Shown here one piece after another: positions 1,182 to 55,916 of a stretch of DNA of 64,000 nt. Each line of letters begins with the position of its first letter. The stretch's first letter is position 1. This DNA comes from an uncultured Dehalococcoidia bacterium (GTDB taxonomy: Bacteria; Chloroflexota; Dehalococcoidia; Lucifugimonadales; CATQGZ01). The translations under genes and the position numbers were made by a program. A model generated the notes under the pieces. That model searched no databases and was not told the DNA's origin. It worked only from the letters and a program-made list of their open reading frames with translations. The stretch spans positions 395,395 to 459,394 of the forward strand of contig OY282365.1 in NCBI GenBank assembly GCA_958295685.2, read 5' to 3'.

Positions 1182-2087
1182 ATGTCCGAGAGGATCCGAC
1201 ACCGCACAGACCATGCGCTGCGGCAGGTGATCAATGCGTTCACAGGCGAGTTGGACTTTCATCCTCTCGATGACCTGATGATCAGCCGTCAGGCGTGGGA
1301 ATACACAGTCGTAGCCCGCATCGAACCCAAGTCGGTGTTTGCTCACCCCCTCCTCATCCGAGAACATCCCCGAACCTCGCAGTACTACCGCGGGATCGCG
1401 CTGCTGCCCCAGAAACGTGTAGCTGATATGGCTGTAGCCGTCTCCTCCTGGGAAGACGGCTCGCGTAGGTCGCCCATCACGAAAGAGCAAAGTACCAGCG
1501 TAGCTCGTCTGTACAACGCGGTCATCTCATCCATCATCGAAGGTACGACCAACTGGACCCTGCAGGACGGCTATCGGAACATAATAGCCAACATGGGCAT
1601 CGGGCTGGACGGCACGTTCCGCAACATCATCGGGCGCGACGCCGAAAATCTGGTGAAGACTCGCATCAGGAACTGGCTTCAAAGCCGAGGGATGATCCTT
1701 GAACAGAGCCCGGACGCCACACAGTTCCGGCTGCCCAGCGGGTACTTGATGCGGTTCGGGTCCGAGCCGGACATCCTGTTCCGGCAGGAGGTCGCAGGTC
1801 GTACCAGAAAGGCAGCAACGATTGAGATCAAAGGAGGCAAAGACCCCGCCGGGGCGCTGGAACGGCTCGGAGCGATGCAGAAGAGCTTCGAAGCCACTCC
1901 GCCCGACTGTGTCAACTTCCTGGTCGCCGGCGTCATCACACCGGAAATGAGAGCCAGGCTGGATCAGATGGGCGTCGTCAAGGTCTTCCTGCTTGATGAT
2001 TTGGCCCACGACGGCGACGGGTGGTCCGACTTCATCAACGAGGTGTTCCACTACACCGTCCGTATCACCGATTCGACCGTGTCCTAG
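1182..2087 (+). CDS. Type II restriction endonuclease candidate (PD-(D/E)XK; possibly XcyI/Cfr9I-like)
   Basis: ATG at 1182 inside track ORF 1059..2087. Nuclease core GSEPDILF...ATIEIKGGKD (PD...ExK). Adjacent to and co-oriented with the methyltransferase. Confidence 0.6.
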   Translation: MSERIRHRTDHALRQVINAFTGELDFHPLDDLMISRQAWEYTVVARIEPKSVFAHPLLIREHPRTSQYYRGIALLPQKRVADMAVAVSSWEDGSRRSPITKEQSTSVARLYNAVISSIIEGTTNWTLQDGYRNIIANMGIGLDGTFRNIIGRDAENLVKTRIRNWLQSRGMILEQSPDATQFRLPSGYLMRFGSEPDILFRQEVAGRTRKAATIEIKGGKDPAGALERLGAMQKSFEATPPDCVNFLVAGVITPEMRARLDQMGVVKVFLLDDLAHDGDGWSDFINEVFHYTVRITDSTVS

Positions 2088-2120
2088 GCCGCTGGTGTCA
2101 TCAGCGCGTCCCAGATAGAC

Positions 2121-2218
2121 AACCGCCTCCCACGACGGGGACTCGTGAATCGCCCGCGCCTCCCATCCTCCCAATCCTGCTAATCCTCCAATCCTGAGAA
2201 TCCTGATTCAGACAACCC
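2121..2218 (+). repeat. Upstream module (one unit) with phased AATCCT hexamers, abutting the -35 of cassette A
   Basis: ...ACTCGTGAATCGCCCGCGCCTCCCATCCTCCCAATCCTGCTAATCCTCCAATCCTGAGAATCCTGATTCAGACAA. Same module as 15753-16058 (3 units, minus sense) and 61197-61399 (2 units). Confidence 0.7.
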
Positions 2219-2445
2219 TTGACGACGCCGAACCGCTGTGCTAGAGTATCCCCATGACACAGCCGCCTCTCTCCACAAACCAGCCCGCACGACTCCTGAA
2301 GCACCTGTCACAAAAGTGTCGCATAAGTGTCGCATAGTGTCGCATGAGTGTCGCAAAAGCGTCGCATAGGTGTCGCATAGTGTCGGCCAAAATCGCACCT
2401 CCCAGCTACGAAATACCCGAAAATGCGACACTTTCGGCAAAAATT
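2219..2445 (+). ncRNA. Candidate promoter-linked structured leader/ncRNA cassette, copy A
   Basis: -35 TTGACG 2219-2224, 17-nt spacer, -10 TAGAGT 2242-2247. Conserved block CATGACACAGCC. Tandem 10-11-nt words GTGTCGCATAA from 2316 to 2386. Conserved loop AAAATCGCACCTCCCAGCTACGAAAT. Inverted word CGACAC 2426-2431, then TTTCGGCAAAAA. Co-oriented with the DUF1501 gene at 2604. Confidence 0.5.
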
Positions 2446-2603
2446 CCCGGAGCCGCCGCTCCCCAGAGGCTCCCGGCTCACCGTCATCGGTCGGTCTTGT
2501 CATGCGTGTGTGGGCCGTAGTAGGATAAGCCTCAGAGAGAATGTGGGGAATCGTCGTTCGAGATAGGGAAGCGGGCGCGTGCCCTAGCCTGTAGGAGGGA
2601 GAA

Positions 2604-3767
2604 ATGGGAAGCCGCAGACAGGAGCCGTCGCTGGTAGTAATCCAGCTCAGCGGAGGGAACGACTACCTGAACACCATCGTGCCGTACAACGACGGGGAGT
2701 ACTACGACTACCGTCCCACGGTGAACATAGAGAGCGAGCGAGTGCTTCCGATAGACGACGAGTACGGCTTCAACCCAAACATGCGGGCCATCAAGGAGCT
2801 GTACGACGAGGGGAAGGTGGCGGTGATCAACGGGATAGGCTACCCGGAGCCCAACCGCTCCCACTTCCGGTCTATGGACATATGGCACACGGCCCTGCCG
2901 GAGGACATAGGAGTCGAGGGCTGGCTGGGTCGAGCGACGCGGGAGTTGGACCCAGGCGGTGAGAACGTCCTTACGGCGGTGAACTTCGGGCGTGGACTTC
3001 CGAGAGCGCTGGGAGTTCGCGGCGTTCCCGTGGCCTCGGTGGGGAACCTGGAGAGCTACGGACTGTTCCCTGACCTTCAGGACGAGAAGCTGCGGAGATA
3101 CGCTCTGGAGGCGTTCGCGAAGATGTACGGGGGCGAGCGCGGCAGGGACGCGGTCATGGACTTTCTGGGTCAGACCGGTACTGACGCCCTGAAGGGAGCG
3201 GACCTTCTTCGGACGGCCGTCGACAAGTACGAGTCCGGCGTGGAGTACGCGGCCTCTCCGATAGGCCAGAGCCTGCGGGACGCGGCGAAGGTGATGTTCG
3301 CGGACCTCGGCACGCGGATCTTCTACACTCAGCAGGGGAGCTACGACACCCACTCTGGCGAGTTGGCCACCCACGGCAGCCTGATAGGAGAGATGTCGGC
3401 TGGCGTGTCGGACTTCTACGCCGACCTGAAGGAGCACGGCAGGGAAGACGACACGACGCTGCTGATATTCTCCGAGTTCGGCAGGCGCATCAAGGACAAC
3501 GGGTCGGGAACCGATCACGGGTCTGGCGGCGTGGCGTTCGTGATCGGGGGGTCTGTGCGTGGAGGGATGTACGGGGAGTACCCGTCGCTGAAGGAGGATC
3601 GCCAGTTGGAGGGAGACCTCCACTACAACAACGACTTCAGGTCGACCTACTCGACCATCCTGGAGAGGTGGCTCCACGTGGAGGCGTCGCCGATAGTGAA
3701 CGGCCACTTCGAGCAGTTCGACTTCATATCCAACGGGAGCGGCAACGGAAGCGGCGCGGCGAACTGA
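2604..3767 (+). CDS. DUF1501 domain protein (sulfatase-like fold)
   Basis: 387 aa; LVVIQLSGGNDYLNT, GYPEPNRSHFRSMDIWHTA and GTDHGSGGVAFVIGG are typical of DUF1501. Confidence 0.75.
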   Translation: MGSRRQEPSLVVIQLSGGNDYLNTIVPYNDGEYYDYRPTVNIESERVLPIDDEYGFNPNMRAIKELYDEGKVAVINGIGYPEPNRSHFRSMDIWHTALPEDIGVEGWLGRATRELDPGGENVLTAVNFGRGLPRALGVRGVPVASVGNLESYGLFPDLQDEKLRRYALEAFAKMYGGERGRDAVMDFLGQTGTDALKGADLLRTAVDKYESGVEYAASPIGQSLRDAAKVMFADLGTRIFYTQQGSYDTHSGELATHGSLIGEMSAGVSDFYADLKEHGREDDTTLLIFSEFGRRIKDNGSGTDHGSGGVAFVIGGSVRGGMYGEYPSLKEDRQLEGDLHYNNDFRSTYSTILERWLHVEASPIVNGHFEQFDFISNGSGNGSGAAN

Positions 3768-3807
3768 GTCACAGCAGCAGCCCACCCCAGAACAGAAAGG
3801 CCCAGAA

Positions 3808-4623
3808 ATGAACGGCGAAGAATTGAAGAGGCGTCTGGAGGCGGGCGGCATCGTGTACGGCACGATGCTGAGCACGAGCAGGAACCCGCGCTGGGCCGAG
3901 CCCATGGCTGGCTTCGGACTGGACTACGCGATCATCGACATGGAGCACTCCCCGCGTGGCAGATCCGAGGTCGCCGACTTCCTCGCGGGATTCGGCATGA
4001 GCGGCGTGGTGCCCATCGTGCGCATACCCATTCCCGACTCACACTACGTCACCATGGCGCTCGACGCCGGAGCCCAGGGAGTGCTCGCTCCCTACTGCGA
4101 GACCGTGGAAGAGGTGAGGGAAGTCGTCGCCGCGGCCAAGTGGCGCCCGCTGAAGGGAGCGCTGGTCCGCAGGGTCATGGAGACAGGCGAGTTTCCGAGC
4201 AGCGCGACCAGAGCCTACCTCGAGGAGCGCAACCGCAACAACGTCTGCATCATCGGCATCGAGAGCGTCCCTGCCGTCGAGAATCTTGAAGACATACTGA
4301 AGGTGGACGGCATCGACGGAATCTTCGTGGGACCCAACGACCTCAGCATCACCCTCGGGATCCCCGACCAGACGGACCACCCGGACTACGAGGCCGCGCT
4401 GAGGCGGATAATCAGCACGTGCAAGGCCCACGACACGCCGACCCTCATCCATCACACCAACGTGGAGACGACGGTGAAGTGGCTGAAGGAAGGAGCCCGG
4501 TTCGTGCTCCATACCACGGACGCCCGCGCGATGCACAACGGGTTCAGAGAGGAATTCACCGCCATCAGGGCCGCGGCAGGGGACGTCTCGGATGCCCTGG
4601 GCGAGTCCACCGAGGTTATCTGA
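3808..4623 (+). CDS. HpcH/HpaI family aldolase
   Basis: 271 aa; GLDYAIIDMEHSPRG and GIDGIFVGPNDLSITLG are typical of 2-keto-3-deoxy-acid aldolases. Confidence 0.8.
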   Translation: MNGEELKRRLEAGGIVYGTMLSTSRNPRWAEPMAGFGLDYAIIDMEHSPRGRSEVADFLAGFGMSGVVPIVRIPIPDSHYVTMALDAGAQGVLAPYCETVEEVREVVAAAKWRPLKGALVRRVMETGEFPSSATRAYLEERNRNNVCIIGIESVPAVENLEDILKVDGIDGIFVGPNDLSITLGIPDQTDHPDYEAALRRIISTCKAHDTPTLIHHTNVETTVKWLKEGARFVLHTTDARAMHNGFREEFTAIRAAAGDVSDALGESTEVI

Positions 4624-4712
4624 CGCCTTCTACTCAAGGACAGCGGGTAGACCGGGCGAGACAGCCAAGGGGTCTCCTGTCGCGCTCTCGATGGATACGT
4701 CGGGGTGAGACC

Positions 4713-5033
4713 CTAGTTGCCGCACTCGCCGCACCGGCAGAGCTTGCGGAGTACCCCGAACGGGTAGATGCCGGTATAGTGAGTGTCGCTCCACAGGAAC
4801 TGCACCGCGTACCTGCCGACCATCAGATAATCCTCGGCTCGGATGTCCGCCGCGACGGTGGCCGGGTCTAGCAGCTTCCTGTTCGACCACTCCTCGACGC
4901 ACTCGGCGCAGCCGCAGTTGATCCGGAGTTCCCTCGCCTCGTAGACGCTGCGGTGACCGTCCACCCACTCGATGAGGACGCGCCCGCCGCCGTCGTCGAG
5001 TTCCACCCGCGCCGGCCTGGGGTTGTTGCTCAT
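4713..5033 (-). CDS. DUF971 domain protein
   Basis: ATG at 5033 (MSNNPRP...). LRINCGCAECV and FLWSDTHYTGIYPF are DUF971 hallmarks. Confidence 0.7.
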   Translation of the reverse strand: MSNNPRPARVELDDGGGRVLIEWVDGHRSVYEARELRINCGCAECVEEWSNRKLLDPATVAADIRAEDYLMVGRYAVQFLWSDTHYTGIYPFGVLRKLCRCGECGN

Positions 5034-5087
5034 CGGACCACCCCCTCGATCCCGTCTCCCCACGAACGGAGACCTTTGAACACCGTC

Positions 5088-5107
5088 ATTCCGGCGAAAG
5101 CCGGAAT
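5088..5107. repeat. REP-like hairpin ATTCCGGC-GAAA-GCCGGAAT
   Basis: Perfect 8-bp stem in the intergenic context GTCATTCCGGCGAAAGCCGGAATCCAG. A degenerate second copy lies near 33465-33500. Confidence 0.6.
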
Positions 5108-5194
5108 CCAGAAGCCATGACGTCCAAGTTGCCGGTGACTATCGTCCTGCTTGGGAGTTGCGCAAGGTCTCCGGAAGCGGGAACCCATGCCGCC

Positions 5195-6301
5195 CTATTC
5201 GATCACCTGAGGTTCGGAGGCGTTCTCGTAGTCCGTCAGCGCCTCCACCCCGTCGTCGGTTACCACCGCTAGGTCCTCGACGTGATAGCCCGCGGTATCC
5301 GGATCGTAGTGCGCGGGCTCGATGCACAGCACCATGCCGGGCGCCAGCGTCTCCTCGGTGGTCGGCTTTAGCATGGGGTGCTCGTGCAGCCCCAGCCCCA
5401 GCCCGTGGCCGATGTGGGCCATCCAGAAGGGGAGCCCGGCCCTCTCGTATGCCGCCTCGCACAGCGAGTACAGGTCGCCCGCGCGCAGGCCCGGCCTCAC
5501 TGCCTCGATCGTCTCGGCGTGGACCTGGTACAGCCTGTCGTACATGCTGCGCTGGCGAGGGCTTGGCTTTCCGACGAAGGCCGTCCTCGCCACGTCGGAC
5601 CAGTAGCCGGTGAAGCTGCCGCCCACGTCGGTATGCACCACGTGGCCGGTCTCCAGCCGCGCCGCGCCCGGGCGGGCGTGCCACTCGAACGACCGCGTCC
5701 CCGTTCCCAGAAACATGAAGTTCATCACGTCGGCTCCCGCAGACGTCACCCCCGCGGCTATCCGGTCCGCTACCTCCTTCTCGGTGTCTCCGGCCCTTGC
5801 CGTTTCGAAGGCCCTGCGGATCGACGCATCGGTAGCCCTCGCAGCCGCTGCCAGGGCGTCGATCTCCTCCTGAGTCTTGATCATCCTGGTACGGTCCATC
5901 AGACCGCCGCAGTCGACCAGTTCGGCGCGTGGCAGCCGCTCGCGCAGCCGGCCCATGAACGCTGCGGGCAGCGAGTGTGTCTCCACACCCAGACGCGCCC
6001 CGGCCAAGCCCTTCTCTGCGACCGTGTCGGCCAGCAGGTCGACCGGAGAGGTCACGAACTCCTTGTAGGTGCGCATGTCCTCAATCTCGCAGTCATCCCG
6101 GCAGGCGGCGTCCTCGCCCTTGCACAGGACGATGGCAGGGTCTCCCTGCCCCGGCCACAGGAGCAGCGCCAGCCGGTCGGGTATCAGGCGTTGCGTGACT
6201 ATCCGCGCGCCCGACAGGTACGACACGTTCTCCAGTGAGCTGGCGACGATGCCGTCCAGGCCGGACTCGGCGAGCAGGTCCTCGAAGCGGTCTATGTTCA
6301 T
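5195..6301 (-). CDS. M24 family Xaa-Pro aminopeptidase/creatinase-like peptidase
   Basis: 368 aa; HTDVGG, HIGHGLGLGLHEHP and CIEPAHY are metal-ligand motifs of the M24 pita-bread fold. Confidence 0.85.
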   Translation of the reverse strand: MNIDRFEDLLAESGLDGIVASSLENVSYLSGARIVTQRLIPDRLALLLWPGQGDPAIVLCKGEDAACRDDCEIEDMRTYKEFVTSPVDLLADTVAEKGLAGARLGVETHSLPAAFMGRLRERLPRAELVDCGGLMDRTRMIKTQEEIDALAAAARATDASIRRAFETARAGDTEKEVADRIAAGVTSAGADVMNFMFLGTGTRSFEWHARPGAARLETGHVVHTDVGGSFTGYWSDVARTAFVGKPSPRQRSMYDRLYQVHAETIEAVRPGLRAGDLYSLCEAAYERAGLPFWMAHIGHGLGLGLHEHPMLKPTTEETLAPGMVLCIEPAHYDPDTAGYHVEDLAVVTDDGVEALTDYENASEPQVIE

Positions 6302-6454
6302 CGGCGTCCATCCTGAGGAATGATACGGCCATAACCTACCAGAAACGGTTTGTCTCGGACAACCGGCGCTTGTGATCCACCAGTATGACCCACGCCCCGA
6401 CGGTGTTGTAATATGGCGGCGTTCGCCTCACACACACTATCGCGGAGAGTCGAC

Positions 6455-8074
6455 ATGGCATTCGACACGCTGATTTTGAACGGTACGGTGGTAGATGGGA
6501 CCGGCAAGCCGTCTTACCTGGCAGACGTGGGCATCGCCAACGACAGGATAGCCGCCGTCGGCGCACTGTCCGCGTCCGAGGCGGCCAGCCGGATCGATGC
6601 GGCAGGCTGCGTCGTGACGCCGGGATTCATAGACATGCACGCACACTCGGACGTGACCATGCTGGACGACCCGAGAGGGGAGAGCAAGGCTCACCAAGGG
6701 GTTACGACCGAGGTCACCGGGAACTGCGGCAGCACTCCATATCCGGCAGGCGTCCTGGGCAGCGGCGAGGCGCTGAGAAGGAGGCAGCCGACCCACCCGA
6801 TACCCCACTCTCCGACCATGTGGGCGTGGACCGACCTCGACAGCTGGGCGTCGCATACGGAGGAGGCGGGCATCGGCCTGAACATCGTCCCGCAGGTGGG
6901 TCACGCCGCTCTCAAGAACGCCGCGGGAGCCTCTATAGACCGGCCTGCCGGCCCCGACGAGCTGGCTCTGATGAAGAAGCTGGCCGCTGAAGCGGTGGAG
7001 CAGGGCGCGGCCGCGCTCAGCAATGCCCTAACAGGCCCCCACTTCGAGGGTGCGCCGACCGACGAGATAGTCGAACTCCTTGAGGCTGTCAGGCCCTACG
7101 AGAACGCCTTCTACTCGACGCACCCCAGGCTGGCCGGAGGATGGCACTTCAAGGCAGCGGAAGAGGCCGTCGAGATAGGCAGGCGCACCGGGATCGTGGT
7201 CGAGTACTCGCACATAGCCATCATAGACTCGCGGCACCATGGGAAGGCGGACGAGATGGCCGCGATATTCGAGAAGGGCAGGGAGGAGGGAGTGGACGTC
7301 GCCTTCGACCTCTATCCTTATCTGGCGGGCGCAGCGGGTTTCAAGTCCCTGACCCCGCCTTGGATGGAGGGACAGGGCGTTGAGGCGGCGCTGGAGATGC
7401 TGGCCGACCCCGCCACACGGCGGCGCGCCAGGGAGCAGATGGAGGGCGGCTGGTGGGGCGACATGCCCTGGCACTTCGACAAGATAGTGATAGTGAAGGT
7501 GGGACCCAACGGCGACCGCGGCCACCTTGGCCGCTCGCTGGCGGAGATCGCGGACTCCAGGGACGCCCATCCCCTGGACACCCTACTCGACATGCTGATA
7601 GAGGACCACAGTGTCGAGTCGGTCATGCACAACAGGACGGAGGAAGACATGCGCCGCTTCCTGGTCCATCCGCTGTCCATCATAGGATCGGACGGCACGG
7701 CGGTATCGCCGCACGGGATATGGAGCGTGACCCAGCCTCATCCGCGCATCTACGGGACTCACCCTAGGGTGCTGGGTAGGTACGTCCGTGAGGAGGGCGT
7801 CCTGTCGCTTGAGGACGCCGTCCACAAGATGAGCGGGTTTCCAGCCGAGAGGATCGGCCTCAGAGACAGGGGTCGTATAGAGGATGGGCTTGCGGCGGAC
7901 CTGGTGGTGTTCGATCCTGAGACGGTGTCGGACACCGCGACCTACCAGGAGCCGCACCGCTACCCTGACGGGATATTCCACGTGTTCCTCAACGGCGAGG
8001 CCATCGTCAGGGACGGAAAGCACACGGGTGCCCTCCCCGGTCGTGTGCTGAGGCGCGGACGCCATGGATATTGA
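6455..8074 (+). CDS. N-acyl-D-amino-acid deacylase (D-aminoacylase, amidohydrolase family)
   Basis: ATG 6455 (MAFDTLILNGTVVDGTG...). VTPGFIDMHAHSD metal motif and C-terminal ADLVVFDPETV. Confidence 0.85.
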   Translation: MAFDTLILNGTVVDGTGKPSYLADVGIANDRIAAVGALSASEAASRIDAAGCVVTPGFIDMHAHSDVTMLDDPRGESKAHQGVTTEVTGNCGSTPYPAGVLGSGEALRRRQPTHPIPHSPTMWAWTDLDSWASHTEEAGIGLNIVPQVGHAALKNAAGASIDRPAGPDELALMKKLAAEAVEQGAAALSNALTGPHFEGAPTDEIVELLEAVRPYENAFYSTHPRLAGGWHFKAAEEAVEIGRRTGIVVEYSHIAIIDSRHHGKADEMAAIFEKGREEGVDVAFDLYPYLAGAAGFKSLTPPWMEGQGVEAALEMLADPATRRRAREQMEGGWWGDMPWHFDKIVIVKVGPNGDRGHLGRSLAEIADSRDAHPLDTLLDMLIEDHSVESVMHNRTEEDMRRFLVHPLSIIGSDGTAVSPHGIWSVTQPHPRIYGTHPRVLGRYVREEGVLSLEDAVHKMSGFPAERIGLRDRGRIEDGLAADLVVFDPETVSDTATYQEPHRYPDGIFHVFLNGEAIVRDGKHTGALPGRVLRRGRHGY

Positions 8075-45539: not shown

Positions 45540-45772
45540 GACGCGGTTTCTCCCCGGTCTCCCATCGGTTATAATATCAAAGTCAGAGAGGGACTCACCG
45601 GGTTAGTTGCGGTTTCTCCCCGATCTCCCATCGGTTATAATTCCTTCAAGCACATCAGAACGCGCCAGAGGTTGCGGTTTCTCCCCGATCTCCCATCGGT
45701 TATAATTCATCGTCGCGCCCATCCAGGCCATCATGAGTTGCGGTTTCTCCCCGATCTCCCGTCGGTTATGAC
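45540..45772 (+). CRISPR. Type II-C-like CRISPR array, 4 repeats / 3 spacers
   Basis: 36-bp repeat GTTGCGGTTTCTCCCCGATCTCCCATCGGTTATAAT at 45606 and 45671. Variants at 45540 (5' end degenerate) and 45737 (3' end degenerate). Spacers of 30, 29 and 30 bp. The sense strand is inferred from tracrRNA complementarity. Confidence 0.9.
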
Positions 45773-48700
45773 GCCAAAGGCCCCGGGTCCAGCACCCGCC
45801 CGATCTCGTTCACCTTCACCTTGCGGAAGCCCTGACTCTGGAGCTGCCGGTCGCTGTACTGGCTCGCCTTCATCTCCTTCTTCCTCACGCGGGCATCGAC
45901 GTTGGCCTCGGTGTGGTCGTCCAGCGCCACGAAGGTACCGTTCTTGGCGTTCGTAATCTTCCGGACCCGCACTATGCGGCGGTCCGGCCCTTCACCAAAC
46001 GCGCCCATGTCGTCGATCTGAAGCCTCATGATTCGCTTCGCCACGGGGTCGCGCCTTCCCGGCTTGTCCTTGGGGCGGAACTGCTCGATGTCGAAACCGG
46101 GCTGATTGGCGTCGAAGGCGGGAACGACGACCATCCTCCAACTCCCGTCGCGCATCCGCCACACGTCGGCGAACTCGTTTCCCCCGGGAAGGTAGCCCTT
46201 GTATGGCCTTCCGTCGCGGTCCCTGACTGGTATGACACTCTGGTTGTCGACGACGCGCACGCGCCGCACAGGGCGGGGGCGCCCGCCCATCGTCACGCCC
46301 CTGTTTGCCGCCCGGTCGGCGAATCTCGCGGTGACCTTGGAGACCGAGCCGCCCTCGGATTCCGCCTCGTCCCACAACTCCAGCAGCGCCGCTCTCAGCG
46401 CCTGGTCTCGCACCGATTTTATGTCGGCACGCTTCTTGAAGTCGGACAGATTCTTGCGAGTCACGACCCTGGACGGGCCGTCTTCCGAATGCTCGATCAG
46501 CCCGTAGGCCGTCTCGTTGTGCAGCTGCCCTGTAGTCTTGCCCTTCTCGCCGCGCGTTCCATGGTCTGGCTTATGGGAGACCACCAGTCTGTCGAGGAAG
46601 GGCTTCAACTGGCTGCGGTTAAAACCGTCCCACGGACGTGCCTCCCCAGCGACCGCGGCCAGTCTCTCCTCTGCTTCGGCGCGGTCGGACCCGGCGGCGT
46701 GCGCGAATCGCTGGAGCAGCCCCTGGGTGGTGTTCGCCACGACGAATGCGTCGATGGCGTGGTGGCGGTGGTCGTCGCGCTGCTTGCCCACGATTTTGCC
46801 GGCCTCGTTCACAGGCAGCATCTCCTCCAGCCTCCATCCCCGCCTGAGCAGCGCCGTCATCTGGCCCGGTATGACACGCACCCGCTTCTTGCCCTCGCTC
46901 CTCTCGTCGTACAGGTGGGCCAGATATGCGCGGGCCGTGCGGGACAGGTAGCGCGTCTCGTTGAGCTGCCGATCCAGGAAGTGGCGCTCGCCCTTGAAGC
47001 GGTCCATGGCGTCCTCATCGAATCTCCAGCGCTTGTTGCCAGGCAGCCTGAAGGCGCGGGACAGGATGGCGTCGTAGTCGTAACCGTCCTGTCCATGTCC
47101 GAACGCCTCGTGTGGAGACCGGTTGCCCTTGCCACGGTTGGCGCTGGATACGCACACGACCTTGTTCGCCATCGAGTTATCCAAAGTACGGGAGAACGGG
47201 AGGATGTGGTCGATCTCGGTTGCGTCCGACACCGCCATCTCGAATGAGAGAACTCTGCCGGTGTAGGGACAGTGGCGCCCCTGCTCCTCCCATAGGCGGA
47301 GCTTCCCGAGCGCGTCGGCTGTGATGGGTCTTTCCGCCGACTCCAGCATCTCCTTGAAGCGCTCGTTGCGCTTCCCACCCTCCCGCTGCTGTCGTTCGTA
47401 ATTCTGCTTCTGCTCCCTGTTCCTCTTCAGGTCACGCCCCAGCTCCACCACGACATCTTCCGGCCTGCCGTACGCATCGATGAGCCGGTTGACGACGCGC
47501 CGCAGCTGGTTCAGGCCAATATGGACGGTGGGGTTGGGGAACCGGCCGTAGCGGGCGGCCTCGCCGTCCTTCTCGGAGTCTTTCGTCGGGTCGGTCCCGA
47601 CCGTGGCCTGGGTGAGCACCTTGCCGTAGTAGGGCAGCCGCTCGTGGGCCTCCGCGCTGCGGAAGTCGGAGTGATGGGAGTATCCCGCGGCTTTGACGGC
47701 GTCCGAATAGACACGGCCCTTCTCCAGGTGCGGAAGCAGCTTGCGGATGGCCTTTTCGCTCAGGTTCCCGTAGCCGTCCGGGAGCGCGGCGTGGGCGACG
47801 ACTTCGGCCTGCGCGGCGTCCAGTCCCCAATCATCCAGGGCCTTCTGCCGGACGACCTCCGGGTCCTCCGTATCGAGCATGAACTGCACGATTCCGTTCC
47901 GCTCGTCGAGGGGAAGATCGAGCCAGCGGTCGCCGAACAGCGTCAGTTCCTTCTCGCCCTTCCTCCTCTTTCCCTTTATGAGACGGGCGGCGGTCTTGTC
48001 TCCATCGATCTTCTTGCGCCCGCCCGCGGCCAGGTTGAACGTGGCCCCCGAGGGGATTCCGAGATCCCGCGTGGGCTTGACGGCTCTGTTGTCCTTGCCC
48101 TCGCGTAGCTTGATGTCCTTACCCGCCCGCAGCCGTTTCAGCGCGCGCTCCCGCTCGCGTTCGTCCAGCGCGCGCTCAGGCCCGAAGCTGACCCGGAGTC
48201 TCAGGTTGTTGACCTCCTGGAGCATGCGGAACTCCTGCGCCACCGGCAACGCCTTTGCTGCCCGGCACTCTCCCTCCTCCAGCTGGCACCATCCCGGATC
48301 GACGTGCTTCAGGGGCCGCTGGAAGAAGATGATGTGGTCTCGCAGGGTGTCCCACCGCTCCTCGATCAGGCTGTGGTGAGGCTCCTGTGCCTCCCGGATC
48401 TTGTCGAACTCGTCCTCGTACATTGCCCTGTCAGGGTAGAGATCCAGACCCTGCCGGGCGCGGACGGATTCGCCCTTCTCACGCCGCGGCGCCAGGAACT
48501 CACCCAGCGTCCGCGCCCCGCTCTCTTCGATACGGTTGTGCAGCGCGCTTATCATGGCGAGCGTTTTCTTGGCCTCGCTCTCGTCGTCGGTGACTGTCTT
48601 GCGGTTCGACTTGAAGCCGCGCCGCTGGTTCAGATGGAACAGCGCCCGGCCCAGTTCGTAGGGTTCGAGCGGGTGATCGAGCGCACGCGCCCGGAGCGCA

Positions 48701-49017
48701 TACGGGTCGAGGCGTTCGAGGGCCTTGCGCTCTCTTTCATCAGGCGGCATGAGGCCGAGCTCGACGAGGGCCTGCATCAGATCGCCGCGACGCTTCAGAT
48801 AGCGGTCACGGCGGCGGCGAGCTCCACGAGCGACGCGACGGTCGGCGGCGTTGGAAGTCCCCGATTGCCGGTTGCGTCCGTCAGGGAAGATGCGGACGCC
48901 CATGTCCAGCGTCCCGCAGGGCTCACCGTCCTCGTTCAGGAGGACCGCGGCCCAGCCGACGGAGTTGGTCCCGAGGTCGAGTCCAAGCCGGTACTTCCTG
49001 CCGTCTTCAGTCGTCAT
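45766..49017 (-). CDS. cas9: CRISPR-associated endonuclease Cas9 (type II-C size class)
   Basis: 1083 aa. RuvC-I YRLGLDLGTNSVGWA; Arg-rich bridge helix RRVARGARRRRDRYLKRR; RuvC-II VVVELGRDL; HNH EIDHILPFSRTLDNSMANKVVC...NRGKGNRSP; RuvC-III HHAIDAFV. All catalytic residues are present. Confidence 0.95.
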   Translation of the reverse strand: MTTEDGRKYRLGLDLGTNSVGWAAVLLNEDGEPCGTLDMGVRIFPDGRNRQSGTSNAADRRVARGARRRRDRYLKRRGDLMQALVELGLMPPDERERKALERLDPYALRARALDHPLEPYELGRALFHLNQRRGFKSNRKTVTDDESEAKKTLAMISALHNRIEESGARTLGEFLAPRREKGESVRARQGLDLYPDRAMYEDEFDKIREAQEPHHSLIEERWDTLRDHIIFFQRPLKHVDPGWCQLEEGECRAAKALPVAQEFRMLQEVNNLRLRVSFGPERALDERERERALKRLRAGKDIKLREGKDNRAVKPTRDLGIPSGATFNLAAGGRKKIDGDKTAARLIKGKRRKGEKELTLFGDRWLDLPLDERNGIVQFMLDTEDPEVVRQKALDDWGLDAAQAEVVAHAALPDGYGNLSEKAIRKLLPHLEKGRVYSDAVKAAGYSHHSDFRSAEAHERLPYYGKVLTQATVGTDPTKDSEKDGEAARYGRFPNPTVHIGLNQLRRVVNRLIDAYGRPEDVVVELGRDLKRNREQKQNYERQQREGGKRNERFKEMLESAERPITADALGKLRLWEEQGRHCPYTGRVLSFEMAVSDATEIDHILPFSRTLDNSMANKVVCVSSANRGKGNRSPHEAFGHGQDGYDYDAILSRAFRLPGNKRWRFDEDAMDRFKGERHFLDRQLNETRYLSRTARAYLAHLYDERSEGKKRVRVIPGQMTALLRRGWRLEEMLPVNEAGKIVGKQRDDHRHHAIDAFVVANTTQGLLQRFAHAAGSDRAEAEERLAAVAGEARPWDGFNRSQLKPFLDRLVVSHKPDHGTRGEKGKTTGQLHNETAYGLIEHSEDGPSRVVTRKNLSDFKKRADIKSVRDQALRAALLELWDEAESEGGSVSKVTARFADRAANRGVTMGGRPRPVRRVRVVDNQSVIPVRDRDGRPYKGYLPGGNEFADVWRMRDGSWRMVVVPAFDANQPGFDIEQFRPKDKPGRRDPVAKRIMRLQIDDMGAFGEGPDRRIVRVRKITNAKNGTFVALDDHTEANVDARVRKKEMKASQYSDRQLQSQGFRKVKVNEIGRVLDPGPLAS

Positions 49018-49428: not shown

Positions 49429-49515
49429 ATTATAATCGATTGGGAGATCGGGGAGTCTCCGTTAACAAGCCTTGCACAAAATCGGAGGACGGGCTACGTG
49501 CCCGTCCTCTCCCCC
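49429..49515 (+). ncRNA. tracrRNA candidate
   Basis: ATTATAATCGATTGGGAGATCGGGGAGTCTCCGTTAAC can pair along almost the whole repeat. It is followed by AAGCCTTGCACAAAATC and an 11-bp hairpin GGAGGACGGGC-TACGT-GCCCGTCCTCT. It carries its own TATAAT at 49431-49436. Confidence 0.7.
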
Positions 49516-49626
49516 ATTCTTGAGGCCGCGCCCGTTCGTCTCCCGAGGCTCGGGAATCCTGATTCAGGCAATCTGCCGCCTACCCAGGCCCCCTCAGGTC
49601 CTCCGTGGTTCTGGTACACTCTGCGC

Positions 49627-49989
49627 ATGGAGAGGGCGCGGTTCGAGAGACTGGTCGCGGAGGCGCTGGAGAAGATACCGGACGAGATCGGCGCCGGTAT
49701 GGACAACCTGGACGTGGTGGTCGACGACTGGCCCACGCAGTCGCAGATGCTCGGATCGGGGATTGAGGAGGGAGAGTATCTCCTGGGGCTCTACGAAGGG
49801 CTGCCGCTGACCGAGCGGTACGACTACAGCATGGTGCTGCCGGACAAGATCACCCTGTTCCAGGGAGCTATCGAGGCCGTCTGCTCCACCGATGAAGAGG
49901 TGGTCCAGGAGGTGCGGGACACGGTGATACACGAGGTGGCGCACCACTTCGGCATCGACGACGAGCGGCTCCGGGAGATGGGTCTGTAG
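49627..49989 (+). CDS. Small zinc metallopeptidase-family protein (HExxH)
   Basis: ATG 49627 (MERARFERLV...). C-terminal TVIHEVAHHFGIDDERL. Confidence 0.75.
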   Translation: MERARFERLVAEALEKIPDEIGAGMDNLDVVVDDWPTQSQMLGSGIEEGEYLLGLYEGLPLTERYDYSMVLPDKITLFQGAIEAVCSTDEEVVQEVRDTVIHEVAHHFGIDDERLREMGL

Positions 49990-50010: not shown

Positions 50011-51651
50011 CTAGTCGTCGGGACCGAAGAGCTCATCCGTCTCGCGCTCGACCTGGGCCCTCAACTCCGCGGCGTCTCTGAAGCCCAGCTCCCTGTACGA
50101 CTCCGCGGAGCCGTATTCCCGCGTCTCGATGACGACGGGCATCGGCACGGCGTGCCCGAAGACGAGCGCCTGGCGCTTGGACTCCAGCCTCGCGAGCACG
50201 GAGCGCAGCCGCCGGCTGCCGGACACGCCGGTCATCACCGCGTCGAGGTCCTTCTCGTTGTCGAGCAGGCACGTGAGCTTGGTGCCCAGCTGACTCATCA
50301 CCTCGTCGTCGATCCCGCTGGGCCGCTGGTCCACGACGAGCAGTGTGACGTTGTACTTGCGCATCTCGCGGGCGATGGCGCCGAAGGTGGTCTGCGAGGC
50401 AACGCCCGGATTGAGGAACTTGTGGGCCTCTTCGATGGTGATCACCAGCGGCCTGGGCTTCCTGGCCTCGTCTCCCATCGCCTCCTCGGACTCTCTCTGG
50501 TAGCGCTCGTAGATGCGGCGGGTGAGGAGATTGGCGACCAGCACGTAGGCGGCCGTGTCGCTCCCGTAGCGCCCGAACTCGAGGACGACGTGCATCCCCC
50601 TGTCGAGGTACTGGAGGATGCGTCCAACGGAGTCGTGGCCCGAGCCCTTGTCCATGAACTTGAGTCGCTTGAGCCTGGACAGGCGGTTCTTCAGCGTGCT
50701 GAGCGCCCTCTCGTTGACGCTGAGGGCGCCGGCGAGGTCCCTGAAGGCGTCCCCCGTCGGGTGCTCCAGAAAGTGGGCGAGCCACGACTTCCCGAAGTGG
50801 CGCTGCAACGAATACGCCGCGTCGGCGGCCACGTCGGAGAGGCTGAGGCTCTCCCTGAGGAGCTGCACGTCCTCCGGCTCCACCTCGTCGAGACCTACAC
50901 GGACTACATAGTCGGGGGTGAGCCCGCGACGGCGCGAACTCTCCTCGTCGAGCGAGAAGACGGCGACCCTGGACGGGAAGAGCTGCTTCAGTCCCTTCAC
51001 CTCGCGCGAATCCTCGCTGTAGCCCTTCCAGCCGTACTCGCTCTGCATGTCGAAGACGAGGTTGCTGGCTGCCCCGCTCTGAAGGATGCCGGCGAGCAGG
51101 AGCCTGGTGAGAAAGGTCTTGCCGGTGCCGCTCTTGCCGAAGACGCCGTTGCTGCGCATCACGAACTCCGGCACGTCCAGGCAGAGCCGTGTCTCCATGT
51201 CGAGAGGGCTGCCTATCCAGAAGTGGCGCTCGTCCTCCTCGCCGAAGACGAGCCGCACGTCGTCCTCGGAGGCGAGGTGGACAGGGGAGAAGTGGGGCGG
51301 GATGGTCTTCGCGGGCTGAGGCCCCTCTACCAACGCCAGCGGGTCGTTGCTCAGCGCCAGCACGGGCTCCACGTCCAGGGCGCCGAAGGCCGCGGTTCCG
51401 AGGAGCGCCTCCGCGATGAACGGGTCTGATACGTCAGGCGGCGCGGCGCTCATGTAGGCGTCCGAGGTCTCCAGGGAGACGTTGCTGACGACGGCGAAGA
51501 ACCGCAACAGCTTCCCGCGCGCCGTAACGTACCTGCCCACCCTGACGTCCTCGACGTTGACGCCGCGGTCGAGACGCACCCTGAGCCCGTCGGTCAGGGA
51601 ACCCTTGACCACCACGCCGAGACGTCCTTCCTGGCCTGGAGAGTCGTTCAT
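50011..51651 (-). CDS. HerA-like (DUF87, FtsK-HerA superfamily) ATPase
   Basis: ATG 51651 overlaps the upstream stop (ATGA). N-terminal HAS-barrel-like LGVVVKGSLTDGLRVRL...RFFAVVSNV. Walker A GKSGTGKT, Walker B LVITIEEAHKF, and VVDQRPS. Confidence 0.8.
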   Translation of the reverse strand: MNDSPGQEGRLGVVVKGSLTDGLRVRLDRGVNVEDVRVGRYVTARGKLLRFFAVVSNVSLETSDAYMSAAPPDVSDPFIAEALLGTAAFGALDVEPVLALSNDPLALVEGPQPAKTIPPHFSPVHLASEDDVRLVFGEEDERHFWIGSPLDMETRLCLDVPEFVMRSNGVFGKSGTGKTFLTRLLLAGILQSGAASNLVFDMQSEYGWKGYSEDSREVKGLKQLFPSRVAVFSLDEESSRRRGLTPDYVVRVGLDEVEPEDVQLLRESLSLSDVAADAAYSLQRHFGKSWLAHFLEHPTGDAFRDLAGALSVNERALSTLKNRLSRLKRLKFMDKGSGHDSVGRILQYLDRGMHVVLEFGRYGSDTAAYVLVANLLTRRIYERYQRESEEAMGDEARKPRPLVITIEEAHKFLNPGVASQTTFGAIAREMRKYNVTLLVVDQRPSGIDDEVMSQLGTKLTCLLDNEKDLDAVMTGVSGSRRLRSVLARLESKRQALVFGHAVPMPVVIETREYGSAESYRELGFRDAAELRAQVERETDELFGPDD

Positions 51652-52274
51652 GGAGACAGCCTCCTCAGGATACCGCTCAGGCGCAGCGTGTCCCGGCCGA
51701 GGAGGACGGCCAGCTCGCGGCCCGCTTCGACCAGGAACCCGTGAGGATCCGGATGGCACAGGCTGGCCTGCCTGACGAAGGAGGCGGCCACGTCGTCGGG
51801 AGAGGGAACGGGCGCGGAGAGGAGAATCGTGAGGAAGTCGAGAGACGACGTGAAGGCCTGTGACTCGTCGGCGCCGCAGGAGTAGACGAATGCGTGTATC
51901 CTGGGCGGCCTCGGAGCGAGGAAGCGCATGGTCTCGCCGTCGAGCGCGTGGCCGACTACCAGGGCGCGGAACTCCGTTCGCAGGAGACGGCTCAGCTGGG
52001 GATTGTTGCGGTAGATGTCCTCCTCCGTATCCTCGTCGCGGCCGCGCGCAATCGGGCGCCTGCCCGGGTCTATGCTGGTGGTCGCAACCTCGCCGACGAC
52101 GCCGTAGACGGGGCCCTCCGCGCCGCATCGGACGAGGGCTCCGAGCGGAGGCGCCCCATAGAGCTCGTAGCAGTGGACCATGAAGTGGTCGGTCGATGCC
52201 TCGACCACTTCACCGAGGCGGTCGGGCCGTTGTTTCGGGTTGGCCGTCTCTTCCATAGCGTGCCTCACAGCCAT
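51648..52274 (-). CDS. Hypothetical protein with HAS-barrel-like N-terminus (start 52274 or 52256)
   Basis: About 208 aa. LGEVVEASTDHFMVHCYELYGAPPLGALVRCGAEGPVYGVVGEVAT parallels the barrel of the downstream ATPase. Sandwiched between NurA-like and HerA-like genes. Confidence 0.5.
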   Translation of the reverse strand: MAVRHAMEETANPKQRPDRLGEVVEASTDHFMVHCYELYGAPPLGALVRCGAEGPVYGVVGEVATTSIDPGRRPIARGRDEDTEEDIYRNNPQLSRLLRTEFRALVVGHALDGETMRFLAPRPPRIHAFVYSCGADESQAFTSSLDFLTILLSAPVPSPDDVAASFVRQASLCHPDPHGFLVEAGRELAVLLGRDTLRLSGILRRLSP

Positions 52275-53479
52275 CTCAGCCGCTTGGAGCGGCTCTTCTC
52301 CGAAGTGCGTACCGGCAGCGCCTGGTCGTGGAGGGCCGTATCCACCTGCTCGACGAAGAGGCGCCGGTCGCCGGCGCTGATGACGGCCTGCTCGTGCGCC
52401 TCCATCAGCGCGACCGGGTACCCCTGCCCAAGGCGGCACTGTTCGAACGCCAGGGAGTGGGTCAGGTCGAGCAGCGCTGGGTCGGCCGCCACCCACGAGG
52501 GCGTCTCCACCCGGGCGACCTCCTCGCCGGCGTGGAGGTAGAAGAAGCACACCTCCTGGCCGGAGTAGTGGTTGGCCACGAGGGGCGAGGAGCTGCGGAA
52601 CAGACCAGACCGCTGTCCCGGCCGCAGAATGTCCCAGAACAGATCCCTGTCGACCACGCCATCGGCCACGTCGTCGCACGGCCGGGCGCCCGGGGCCGTC
52701 TCTCGGCAGTGCCGTTCGCACTCCGCGGCATGGTACGGACAGGCGGCCAGCCGCAGGGCGTTGACCACTTCCACCCCTGCGGGCATGCTCACGTAGCTGG
52801 CGACCGCCAACGGCCGATCGGCGGCCAGACCCCTGAGGCGGTCGAGCGCCTCCATGAGGCCGTTGTCGACCAGGTCGCGCCTGACGTAGTCCTCATAACC
52901 GTGGCCGGAGATGCCGATCATTATGAGGGAGCCGTCCATGATTGCCAGGGTCGGCAGGTCGTCAGGAAGCATGGCGGCGGTCTCGGCCAACGCGGTGGCC
53001 TCCTCGGCCATGCGCTTGGCTGCCAGGACGTTGCCTTCGATCCACACCTGCCGGAAGTGGGAGTCGGGGTCTCGGATGACGAGCTCGTCGGCTTCGGCGT
53101 AGAGACGGGCGCGGCTGCTCAGTTCGGCGTTGGGCCGTGAGCCGTAGGTCAGAGACGCTACGCCGACGTTTATCACGTAGCACCGAGCCGGCATGTTCCG
53201 GTCGGCGCCGATGTCCGACCCGTCGGTCGCGATGACGCGGTAGTCGTCCGGCGGAGGCTGGGCCGGGTACGCGGCCCCGGGGCTGTCCGACGCCGTCGGC
53301 AGCCTCCACGCCGCTGCGGGTCCACTGCGGTTGCGCTTGTCCTCGTAAGACACGGGGTCGAACCCGCGGGCGGTTTCCAGTGCGCGCTCGAGCCGCTGCC
53401 GCTTCTCGTAGGCCCGGCCCTTGAGGCCGGCGGCCATACGGTCGATCTGCATCGCTGTGTTGCCCAGGTCGAGCGGCAT
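52265..53479 (-). CDS. NurA-like nuclease
   Basis: ATG 53479, 1 nt after the upstream TAG. NurA signature Asp motifs VIATDGSDIG and LAIMDGSLIM. Confidence 0.7.
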   Translation of the reverse strand: MPLDLGNTAMQIDRMAAGLKGRAYEKRQRLERALETARGFDPVSYEDKRNRSGPAAAWRLPTASDSPGAAYPAQPPPDDYRVIATDGSDIGADRNMPARCYVINVGVASLTYGSRPNAELSSRARLYAEADELVIRDPDSHFRQVWIEGNVLAAKRMAEEATALAETAAMLPDDLPTLAIMDGSLIMIGISGHGYEDYVRRDLVDNGLMEALDRLRGLAADRPLAVASYVSMPAGVEVVNALRLAACPYHAAECERHCRETAPGARPCDDVADGVVDRDLFWDILRPGQRSGLFRSSSPLVANHYSGQEVCFFYLHAGEEVARVETPSWVAADPALLDLTHSLAFEQCRLGQGYPVALMEAHEQAVISAGDRRLFVEQVDTALHDQALPVRTSEKSRSKRLRWL

Positions 53480-53480
53480 T

Positions 53481-53987
53481 CTACCCGAGCTCCACGCGGT
53501 CGCTCTCGAAGACGACCCACCGCCCCGCGAATCCGACGCGCACCCTTCCGAGGCGTCTGATCTCAATACGGAGCCGGTCGAGCCGCCTCGTGACCTCCGA
53601 ATCGTCGGTCGTGGTCTGCGCTCCGGCCACCGACTCTCCCCAGAGACCTCTCTGGGGGAGCCTCTTGATGAGTTCGATCAGCCTGTCCAAAAAGAGTGTG
53701 AAGGCCATCTTGCAGAGGGATTCCAGAGGGTCGGCCTCGAGCGGATCGAAGAACGCAAGCCTGAGAACGAGCCTGTCCTCTTCCGGCATGGCCCACACTC
53801 GCAGCGCCGGGTATGGGGGTTCGGCGAACAGGTCGTGGGACGGGTCGCTCGCGCGGGCAGCGGCCCGGAGGGCGGCCTGAAGTGTGCGCAGCAGGGACGA
53901 GACGTTGGACACGGACAGATAGCCCGTGTCCAGCACGACTTCCAGGAGATGCTGCCCGTCCTCGACAGGCCTGCCGTCGGTCTCCAT
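53481..53987 (-). CDS. Hypothetical protein, first gene of the NurA/HerA operon
   Basis: 168 aa with a GGGAG RBS and no recognisable motif. Starts 24 nt downstream of the selB stop. Confidence 0.5.
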   Translation of the reverse strand: METDGRPVEDGQHLLEVVLDTGYLSVSNVSSLLRTLQAALRAAARASDPSHDLFAEPPYPALRVWAMPEEDRLVLRLAFFDPLEADPLESLCKMAFTLFLDRLIELIKRLPQRGLWGESVAGAQTTTDDSEVTRRLDRLRIEIRRLGRVRVGFAGRWVVFESDRVELG

Positions 53988-54011: not shown

Positions 54012-55916
54012 CTAGCGCAGAACTCTGGCATCCCCCACGCGGCGGGTTATGCGCTGATGGTCGAGGTGGTCCATCAGGGCGAGGGCGTACTTCCTGCTCG
54101 TACCGAACATGTCCCTGACGTCGGCGACGGTGACCTCTCCTCGCTCCTTGATACGCGCGGATATTCTATCAGCCATCTCAGCATACGCGGAGACGGCGAA
54201 CACGACGCCCCCGCCGGCCTTCACCACCTTGCCTTGGTCTACGAGCAGGTTCAACAGGTCCGGGTCGATGTCGGAGTCGGTCGGCGGGGAATATGGCGAT
54301 GACTCCAGCAACTCGACGTAGGCCTGAGTCGCCTTGCGGTCGGCCTCGGTAAGCCCCGGCTCATGGCCCGGCGCTCGCACGAGAGTCCCCTCTTCGACCA
54401 GAACCCCCTCGCTCACAAGCCCCGGCATGACGTCGCTGAAGATCTGAGGAATCACGCCGAGCCTGCTCCGGATCTCCTCTTTGGGGGCGCCCGTCCGGAG
54501 CGGGAAGCGCCGGTGATAGCCGCCCAGGAAGTCGCGCGCTCTGGCTGCGACCTCGTCCCAGCCCGGACGGGTATACAGCCGCACGCCGGGTCCCAGTGGA
54601 CGGCTGCCCAGCGCCACGACCAGACCCCCTTCGGCCATGGCGTCAAGCTCGGCCCTAGCCGCGGCAGGATCGAGGTTGGCCTTGTTCACCACAGACTCGA
54701 ACACGGCGGGCTCCGACGATGCTATGGTCGCGAGGAGCATGTCCCTGACGGAACCCTCTTCCATAACCGTCAGGCGCTCGAGGGTGGGAGCGAACCCGCG
54801 GCGATGCCGTTTCGCGTGCGTCTCGACGACGCTGCCGCCTCCAAGAGTCGTCTGGTTTGACCTGATTACAAAGTAGTCGCCCCGGGCCGCCGAGACGGGC
54901 GAGCTGAGCTTGAGCTGGGCCCACACGGTGTCCCCTGGCTCGGCCCGGTCGGCATCGAGCAGCCGGAGCCTGCAGACGACCTCGCTGCTGCCGGTGTGAA
55001 GAGTGACGTGGGTGTTGTGCCTGAGAGGGTAGGGGGCCCGGTCGAGCACGCGCAGGTGGACGTCGATGGCCGTAGTGGGGGCCAGCCAGCCGGGTATGGT
55101 CAGAACCTCGCCCCGCGCTACGCTCTCGTGTGGGATGGCCGCGATGTTGACCGCCACCCTGCTGCCGGGCTCGGCCCGCTCCAAACTCTTGCGGTGAGTC
55201 TGCAGACCCCTGATTCTGGTACTGCGGCCGGAGAGCGCCAGCTCGACTTCCTGCCCGACGTCGAGGTCGCCGTCGACGAGTGTGCCGGTGACCACCGTCC
55301 CGAAGCCGGACATCGCGAAGGAGCGGTCTATAGGCAGGCGCGGTCGCCCGAGATTCCGCTTGGGCTCCGCCTTCCTCAGGAGCGAGTCGATAGCCGAGAC
55401 CAGATCGTCCATCCCCTCCCCGGTCAGAGAGGATACGGCCAGCACGGGTGAGCCCTCGAGAGCCGTTCCGTCCAGGAGGTCGTCGACGTCCGCGGTGACG
55501 AGCTCCAGCCAGTCGTCGTCAACGAGGTCTCTCTTCGTCACCGCGACGACTCCGAGGCTCACGCGCAGCATGTCCAGGATGGCCAGGTGCTCTCGAGTCT
55601 GGGGCATCACCGCTTCGTCCGCCGCCACCACTAGGAGCGCCAGATCGATCCCTCCGACGCCCGCAAGCATGTTGTTCACGAACCGCTCGTGGCCTGGCAC
55701 GTCGACGATGCTGACCTCGTTGCCGTTCGGCAGCCGGAGCCAGGCGAAGCCGAGGTCTATGGTCATACCGCGCTCTTTTTCGGCCTTGAGGCGGTCCGGG
55801 TCGATTCCTGTAAGCGCCCGTACCAGTGCGGACTTGCCGTGGTCGACGTGTCCGGCGGTGCCGACTACAAACACGGTGGCGGCCCCACGTTCGGAAGGAT
55901 GGCCTGAGAATAGCAC
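54012..55916 (-). CDS. selB: Selenocysteine-specific elongation factor SelB
   Basis: GTPase motifs GTAGHVDHGKS, DVPGHERF and TKRD, then winged-helix C-terminal domains. An alternative GTG start at 55874 gives MFVVGTAGH. Confidence 0.9.
   Translation of the reverse strand: MLFSGHPSERGAATVFVVGTAGHVDHGKSALVRALTGIDPDRLKAEKERGMTIDLGFAWLRLPNGNEVSIVDVPGHERFVNNMLAGVGGIDLALLVVAADEAVMPQTREHLAILDMLRVSLGVVAVTKRDLVDDDWLELVTADVDDLLDGTALEGSPVLAVSSLTGEGMDDLVSAIDSLLRKAEPKRNLGRPRLPIDRSFAMSGFGTVVTGTLVDGDLDVGQEVELALSGRSTRIRGLQTHRKSLERAEPGSRVAVNIAAIPHESVARGEVLTIPGWLAPTTAIDVHLRVLDRAPYPLRHNTHVTLHTGSSEVVCRLRLLDADRAEPGDTVWAQLKLSSPVSAARGDYFVIRSNQTTLGGGSVVETHAKRHRRGFAPTLERLTVMEEGSVRDMLLATIASSEPAVFESVVNKANLDPAAARAELDAMAEGGLVVALGSRPLGPGVRLYTRPGWDEVAARARDFLGGYHRRFPLRTGAPKEEIRSRLGVIPQIFSDVMPGLVSEGVLVEEGTLVRAPGHEPGLTEADRKATQAYVELLESSPYSPPTDSDIDPDLLNLLVDQGKVVKAGGGVVFAVSAYAEMADRISARIKERGEVTVADVRDMFGTSRKYALALMDHLDHQRITRRVGDARVLR

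Follow-up and report, generated by a model that had tools for sequence, protein, structure and literature searches.

The locus analyzed here raises the question of whether a NurA-family nuclease and a HerA-family ATPase, the standard example of end resection by a helicase and a nuclease in archaea and some bacteria, can belong to a larger assembly, and whether such an assembly would act in DNA repair or in defence. To our knowledge, all work on NurA-HerA has concerned a complex of two proteins. In a 64,000-nucleotide (nt) stretch of DNA from an uncultured Dehalococcoidia bacterium (contig OY282365.1, positions 395,395 to 459,394, assembly GCA_958295685.2; hereafter the window), nurA and herA flank a gene for an uncharacterized protein, which we denote C, and are preceded by selB and by a gene for a 168-amino acid (aa) protein, which we denote orf168; a cas9 gene lies beyond the other end of the string. 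A preliminary description, made from the sequence alone, had read orf168, nurA, C, and herA as one four-component system and had hinted at a role in phage defence. Drawing on the observed gene identities, the fold of C, co-occurrence, and synteny, we conclude that nurA, C, and herA (hereafter the trio) probably constitute a chromosomal, vertically inherited, three-component DNA-end-processing machine, in which neither orf168 nor cas9 takes part.

The two enzymes were identified by profile searches, which upheld the family assignments first made from the sequence. NurA matched Pfam PF09376 with 72.8 bits (cut-off 21; E = 4e-20) over model positions 2-254 of 254, and HerA matched PF01935 (DUF87) with 85.1 bits (cut-off 23.2; E = 1e-23). 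The motifs previously noticed in both proteins are also in place: the DGS motifs of NurA occupy residues 86-88 and 182-184, and HerA contains Walker A (GKSGTGKT, residues 172-179) and Walker B (VITIEEAH, residues 403-410). Across 24 NurA homologs, D86 and S88 of the first DGS motif, E160, D182 and G183 of the second DGS motif, H362, and E363 are invariant; the acidic residues and the histidine among them are candidates for the active site of the RNase H-like fold. A sequence search of the PDB returned no match for NurA. The N-terminal HAS-barrel of HerA itself scored 21.4 bits against PF09378, under the cut-off of 25.2. All PDB sequence matches of HerA are HerA proteins, of several kinds, the best being a SIR2-associated HerA. 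By sequence comparison, the NurA and HerA of the window appear to represent a distinct bacterial clade of both families, and their functions are assigned by analogy. The genome holds a single NurA, the one encoded in this string. Compared with a congener, orf168, nurA, C, and herA are all under purifying selection, with ratios of nonsynonymous to synonymous substitution rates (dN/dS) of 0.13-0.29 (0.23 for nurA and 0.18 for C).

Protein C had no match in Pfam, NCBIfam, or PADLOC at E-values up to 1, and none of its approximately 1,250 homologs has a Pfam domain or a label other than hypothetical; the matches listed in the protein searches all come from Chloroflexota, Dehalococcoidia or Anaerolineaceae. 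AlphaFold modeling from a 21-sequence alignment (predicted local distance difference test score [pLDDT] 91, predicted template modeling score 0.84) yielded two domains, a beta-barrel (residues 19-132) and a helical one (residues 135-206). When this model was compared with the PDB using Foldseek, the best 50 matches were all N-terminal regions of HerA (E = 2e-6 to 4e-4), from archaeal, Deinococcus, and defence-type chains aligned over approximately 130-150 columns, with archaeal HerA N-termini at the top. BLASTP detected no significant similarity between C and the partner HerA; a comparison of profiles, that of C and that of residues 1-150 of this HerA, gave a weak but collinear match (E = 0.0017, 118 columns). 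From the modeled fold and this collinear profile match, C is an ancient, diverged copy (remote paralog) of the N-terminal HAS-barrel region of HerA that lost the ATPase, with the helical domain standing in its place. The earlier reading of the middle protein as a free-standing HAS-barrel is thus borne out by the fold search, not by sequence. Within C, the loop at residues 69-102 is strongly conserved (consensus DPxRxPIARG...VYxxNPQLxRLLxTEF); in it, R72 is invariant, R77 nearly so, and residues 80-86 form an acidic stretch.

The distribution of C was examined in two genome sets: (i) 41 close relatives from 38 families of the order and (ii) 301 evenly sampled Chloroflexota genomes, in which NurA of the same type was defined by E < 1e-12. 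Among the close relatives, C and NurA are present in the same 35 genomes and absent from the same 6. Across the phylum, C was found in 122, same-type NurA in 119, and a HerA ortholog in 121 of the 301 genomes; all 119 genomes with same-type NurA carry C, and the NurA and HerA ortholog sets are nearly identical. Three genomes have C without a strong NurA: in one the C gene is interrupted, another is an 81%-complete assembly with a fragment of C only, and the third has a weaker NurA match (4.6e-9). Evolutionary distance covariance, after controlling for selB, lends weak support to the linkage of the three proteins (partial r of 0.65 for C and HerA, 0.62 for NurA and HerA, and 0.53 for NurA and C). 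The preliminary description had proposed both extra proteins as partners of the enzymes; a tie to them is seen for C, present in every genome with same-type NurA, but not for orf168 (see below).

The Chloroflexota sample also contains a second, distant type of NurA (E of approximately 1e-6 to 1e-9 against the NurA of the window), which occurs in 44 genomes (e.g., G115, G151, and G253). All 44 are devoid of C.

Gene order tells the same story. In 100 Dehalococcoidia loci, C is directly upstream of herA wherever the sequence continues, and nurA is usually just upstream of C, sometimes being relocated or split off by unrelated cassettes. In other classes, nurA and C are adjacent and herA is located elsewhere in the genome. 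C always adjoins either herA or nurA. A check of gene-neighborhood conservation, as initially suggested for this locus, thus finds nurA, C, and herA traveling together, with orf168 staying beside selB instead and no defence island around them.

The junction between nurA and C is a recurrent insertion site in relatives (loci L050, L051, L076, L043, L046, L052, L060, L074, and L134). The inserted genes encode GNAT acetyltransferases, nucleotidyltransferase/HEPN and PIN toxin-antitoxin-like pairs, peptidases, and transposase-like proteins; in every relative with such an insertion, the C-herA junction is unbroken. The inserted genes were considered as further partners and rejected as unrelated. 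A second gene of approximately 197 aa in L134, considered as a duplicate of C, proved to be an unrelated lipoprotein-like open reading frame (ORF) and was likewise discarded.

The arrangement in the window, where the five genes selB, orf168, nurA, C, and herA follow one another co-directionally on the minus strand, is as follows.

selB, 54012..55916, minus strand: first gene of the co-directional string; Pfam GTP_EFTU, SelB beta-barrel, and both SelB winged-helix domains
orf168 (P0001; 168 aa), 53481..53987, minus strand: lineage-restricted orphan protein
nurA (P0002; 404 aa), 52265..53479, minus strand: NurA-family nuclease, Pfam PF09376
C (P0003; 202 or 208 aa), 51648..52274, minus strand: free-standing HAS-barrel with a C-terminal helical domain
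herA (P0004; 546 aa), 50011..51651, minus strand: HerA/DUF87 hexameric ATPase-translocase, Pfam PF01935
Zincin_1 gene, 49498-49989: convergent with herA
cas9, 45766-49017: past the Zincin_1 gene, start 994 nt from the herA stop

Reading of the sequence confirmed the 168-aa gene (53987-53481), the tight packing of co-oriented genes, and the location of cas9 approximately 1 kb away. The selB stop is at 54012, 24 nt from the ATG of orf168; nurA starts 1 nt past the TAG of orf168, and the ATG of herA overlaps the TGA of C as ATGA. Only the nurA-C junction, initially described as a short overlap, depends on the choice of start codon. Initiation at the ATG at 52256, which is preceded by GAGG 7 nt upstream and coincides with the public gene call, gives a 202-aa protein and an 8-nt gap; initiation at the ATG at 52274 gives 208 aa and a 10-nt overlap. 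The 202-aa form is more likely, the 208-aa form being the alternative. As for the operon itself, which had been taken to begin 24 nt after selB, the spacing is correct, but the spacer contains a ribosome-binding site only, with no sigma-70-like promoter found, and no convincing terminator was found inside the five-gene string. Transcription therefore probably begins upstream of selB, not after it. Since no genome examined has orf168 anywhere but after selB, two units, selB-orf168 and then nurA-C-herA, describe the string better.

How the three proteins might work together is suggested by the known complexes. In them, a NurA dimer docks on the pore face of HerA, which is made up of its six HAS-barrels, with 6:2 stoichiometry (PMC9960219). 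By analogy with the archaeal and Deinococcus complexes, we infer that in the Chloroflexota, too, the proteins form a complex active in end resection in vivo: the HerA hexamer would pump double-stranded DNA through its central channel, the NurA dimer docked on the HAS-barrel ring would cut the strands, and broken ends would be resected for recombination jointly with SbcCD (Mre11-Rad50-like). C copies the exact domain by which HerA holds NurA, which predicts an undescribed subunit or gate. Most plausibly, C would be located at the NurA-HerA interface as a stoichiometric subunit, given that it is a free HAS-barrel whose gene is coupled in translation to herA and has not parted from nurA during evolution; there it could add a further ring of barrels or serve as an adaptor by which NurA is held or gated. 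The stricter proposal that C is an obligatory third subunit, a free HAS-barrel ring either inserted between HerA and NurA or replacing the HerA barrel as the dock for NurA, is offered tentatively, as somewhat short of an even chance. If it is true, the machine would have three layers, and the two-component picture of the bacterial system would be incomplete for a whole phylum.

The same fold could be put to a different use. C might be a regulator, namely, a decoy that mimics the docking barrel of HerA and binds NurA to keep it from acting before HerA has been loaded onto a DNA end, or else a chaperone for assembly of the HerA ring. The fold of C is that of the NurA-binding surface in the complexes studied so far (PMC9960219), several classes keep C beside nurA with herA elsewhere, and the acidic loop of C recalls, by sequence alone, the acidic NurA-binding patch of Deinococcus HerA. 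However, the acidic stretch is missing in the Anaerolineaceae version of C and therefore carries no weight in the argument, and the ATGA coupling together with the invariant C-herA adjacency in Dehalococcoidia suggests that C is made at a level similar to that of HerA, which better fits a subunit. We consider a regulatory role of C unlikely and prefer the adaptor or ring.

Several points weigh against a three-component end-processing machine. The studied Deinococcus and archaeal NurA-HerA complexes function as two components. The NurA clade appears to be distant from the characterized enzymes, judging by the lack of sequence matches to any solved structure. The HerA of the window also falls far below the NCBIfam equivalog cut-offs for double-strand break repair HerA, with 61.1 bits against 970 for NF040819 and 62 bits against 800 for NF040937. 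The co-occurrence statistics are inflated by shared ancestry, and the complementarity of the trio with RecJ, described below, is not significant (p = 0.16). Co-transcription of the string is a prediction, and binding of C to NurA or HerA is proposed by analogy.

Among characterized systems, the closest in setting is NurA-HerA of Deinococcus radiodurans (PMC9960219; PDB 7wrw/7wrx), likewise bacterial and chromosomal, with nurA and herA side by side. Its HerA is built from a RecA-like ATPase, a HAS-barrel, and a bundle of helices, the ring of HAS-barrels carries NurA at a 6:2 ratio, and the complex takes part in DNA repair. However, Deinococcus HerA is absent from the sequence matches of the HerA studied here, and no solved NurA matches the NurA of the window. 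The Deinococcus system was described and reconstituted with two proteins, whereas here a gene for a stand-alone HAS-barrel lies between nurA and herA and its product co-occurs with same-type NurA without exception in the sample. The archaeal HerA-NurA systems that act with Mre11-Rad50 in Sulfolobus, Pyrococcus, and Thermococcus (PMC3326311, PMC5715905, PMC12977600) comprise the same two enzyme families, and it is the N-termini of archaeal HerA that match the fold of C best. A link to Mre11/Rad50-type proteins is suggested here as well, by the co-occurrence with SbcD and by an SbcC/Rad50-like ORF at an Anaerolineaceae locus, where the gene string resembles the archaeal herA-mre11-rad50-nurA operon. 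Unlike in archaea, sbcD is unlinked to the trio in the window genome, and the scores of HerA are below the NCBIfam cut-offs for archaeal HerA. In full-text literature searches, no account of a HAS-barrel protein as a third part of NurA-HerA was found, and, as the preliminary description had remarked, no named system has such a composition. We know of no free HAS-barrel subunit described in archaea. C is a conserved, unstudied protein and the one interesting feature in an otherwise ordinary repair context.

Several observations point to a context of repair. The flanking genes, namely, those for YchF, HemN, SelB, and the Zincin_1 protein, are conserved over the order, and nurA, C, and herA are single-copy genes. 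Searches of 72,556 plasmids, 50,697 phages, and the IMG/VR viral contigs found no homologs of C. The locus is chromosomal and vertically inherited, neither mobile nor in a defence island, and is read as part of the core repair complement. SbcD scored above the cut-off in 34 of the 35 close relatives with the trio as against 2 of the 6 without it (p = 7e-4). It does so in the window genome, too, where sbcD is on the same contig approximately 350 kb from the trio. At the Anaerolineaceae locus mentioned above (L123, positions 1765-7803, genome G223), nurA, C, herA, and an 859-aa ORF form an overlapping co-directional string. By its sequence, this ORF looks SbcC/Rad50-like; no sbcD/mre11 gene follows it within the locus.

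The window genome has no RecJ match and nothing above the cut-off for AddA or RecB, and RecJ is unmatched throughout its family (four genomes, G000-G003). RecJ is present in all 6 close relatives without the trio, all 12 relatives without RecJ have the trio, and none lacks both. The set of end-resection enzymes in the window genome is unusually small, with SbcD and NurA-C-HerA kept. With no RecJ, AddAB, or RecBCD detected, 5' resection may depend chiefly on NurA-HerA in lineages like this one.

A defence function, as in the anti-phage systems Sir2-HerA (Nezha), DUF4297-HerA, and TdpAB, would also combine a hexameric HerA-type ATPase with an effector on the HAS-barrel face, NurA being the effector in this case, directed against phages or plasmids. 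Anti-phage HerA proteins turn up both when C is compared by fold and when HerA is compared by sequence, a SIR2-associated protein being the best PDB sequence match. PADLOC HerA models match the C-terminal part of the ATPase (best E = 4.5e-28), cas9 is 1 kb away, and small toxin-antitoxin-like and transposase cassettes often lie between nurA and C in relatives. The PADLOC matches do not cover the whole HerA protein, however, and PADLOC is silent on NurA, C, and orf168; this check, proposed when the locus was first described, thus yields a match to part of one protein. No Sir2, DUF4297, or TdpB partner is encoded here, and the NCBIfam anti-phage HerA models gave 75.9 bits against a cut-off of 800 (NF042943) and 55.1 bits against 850 (NF042944). 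Vertical inheritance across the phylum in single copy, the non-mobile setting between conserved housekeeping genes, the lack of plasmid or phage homologs of C, and the co-occurrence with SbcD all speak against defence. The neighboring cas9 gene encodes an intact, 1083-aa protein with RuvC_III, HNH, and Cas9 alpha-lobe domains and adjoins the Zincin_1 gene; it is absent at this position in all 120 related loci and therefore looks like a lineage-specific insertion, its proximity being coincidental. Defence is thus highly improbable. The preliminary description had itself named universal conservation as core repair genes, with no defence-island association, as grounds for abandoning its hint of defence, and the results agree with this: the trio is conserved as core chromosomal genes with conserved housekeeping flanks. 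A false lead is thereby removed: there is no new defence system here, and the proximity of cas9 has no bearing on the function of the trio.

We now turn to orf168, the other gene of the string with no assigned family. Its product had no family match in Pfam, NCBIfam, or PADLOC at E-values up to 1; the family comprises 92 clusters, all named hypothetical. The predicted model (pLDDT 82) had no match in the PDB at E <= 0.001, just generic ferredoxin-like matches. In profile searches, orf168 was detected in 18 of the 41 close relatives, 15 of the 35 with the trio (leaving 20 that lack it) and 3 of the 6 without (Fisher p = 1.0), and it is directly downstream of selB at every place examined (including L132, L138, L139, L140, and L141). 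In the three genomes that have orf168 and no trio, selB is followed by orf168 and, in two of the three, by a convergent Zincin_1 gene, which is the layout of the window minus nurA-C-herA. Similarly, in L132/L133, orf168 follows selB with no nurA nearby, and in G025, orf168 is still found after selB, with nurA 5 kb away on the opposite strand. We conclude that orf168 is linked to selB and is not a partner of NurA-HerA, though it belongs to the same gene string; hence, what appeared to be a four-gene operon is two units in one string. A single complex of orf168, NurA, C, and HerA, for which one could cite the 1-nt spacing of orf168 and nurA in the window and their adjacency in 13 of the 15 relatives that have both, is largely refuted by this distribution and is the least probable of the readings considered.

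In most Dehalococcoidia loci (L011-L110), selB is followed within approximately 5-25 nt either by nurA or by orf168 and then nurA. Throughout an order, the gene for a translation factor thus seems to be transcribed as one unit with genes for DNA repair, although no functional link between them is evident. The orf168 proteins themselves share the invariant motif PQxxLWG and have a helix rich in arginine (R135, R140, R144, and R145). As pure speculation, orf168 could be an accessory of the selenocysteine machinery, for example, one that binds SelB or the selenocysteine insertion sequence (SECIS) RNA.

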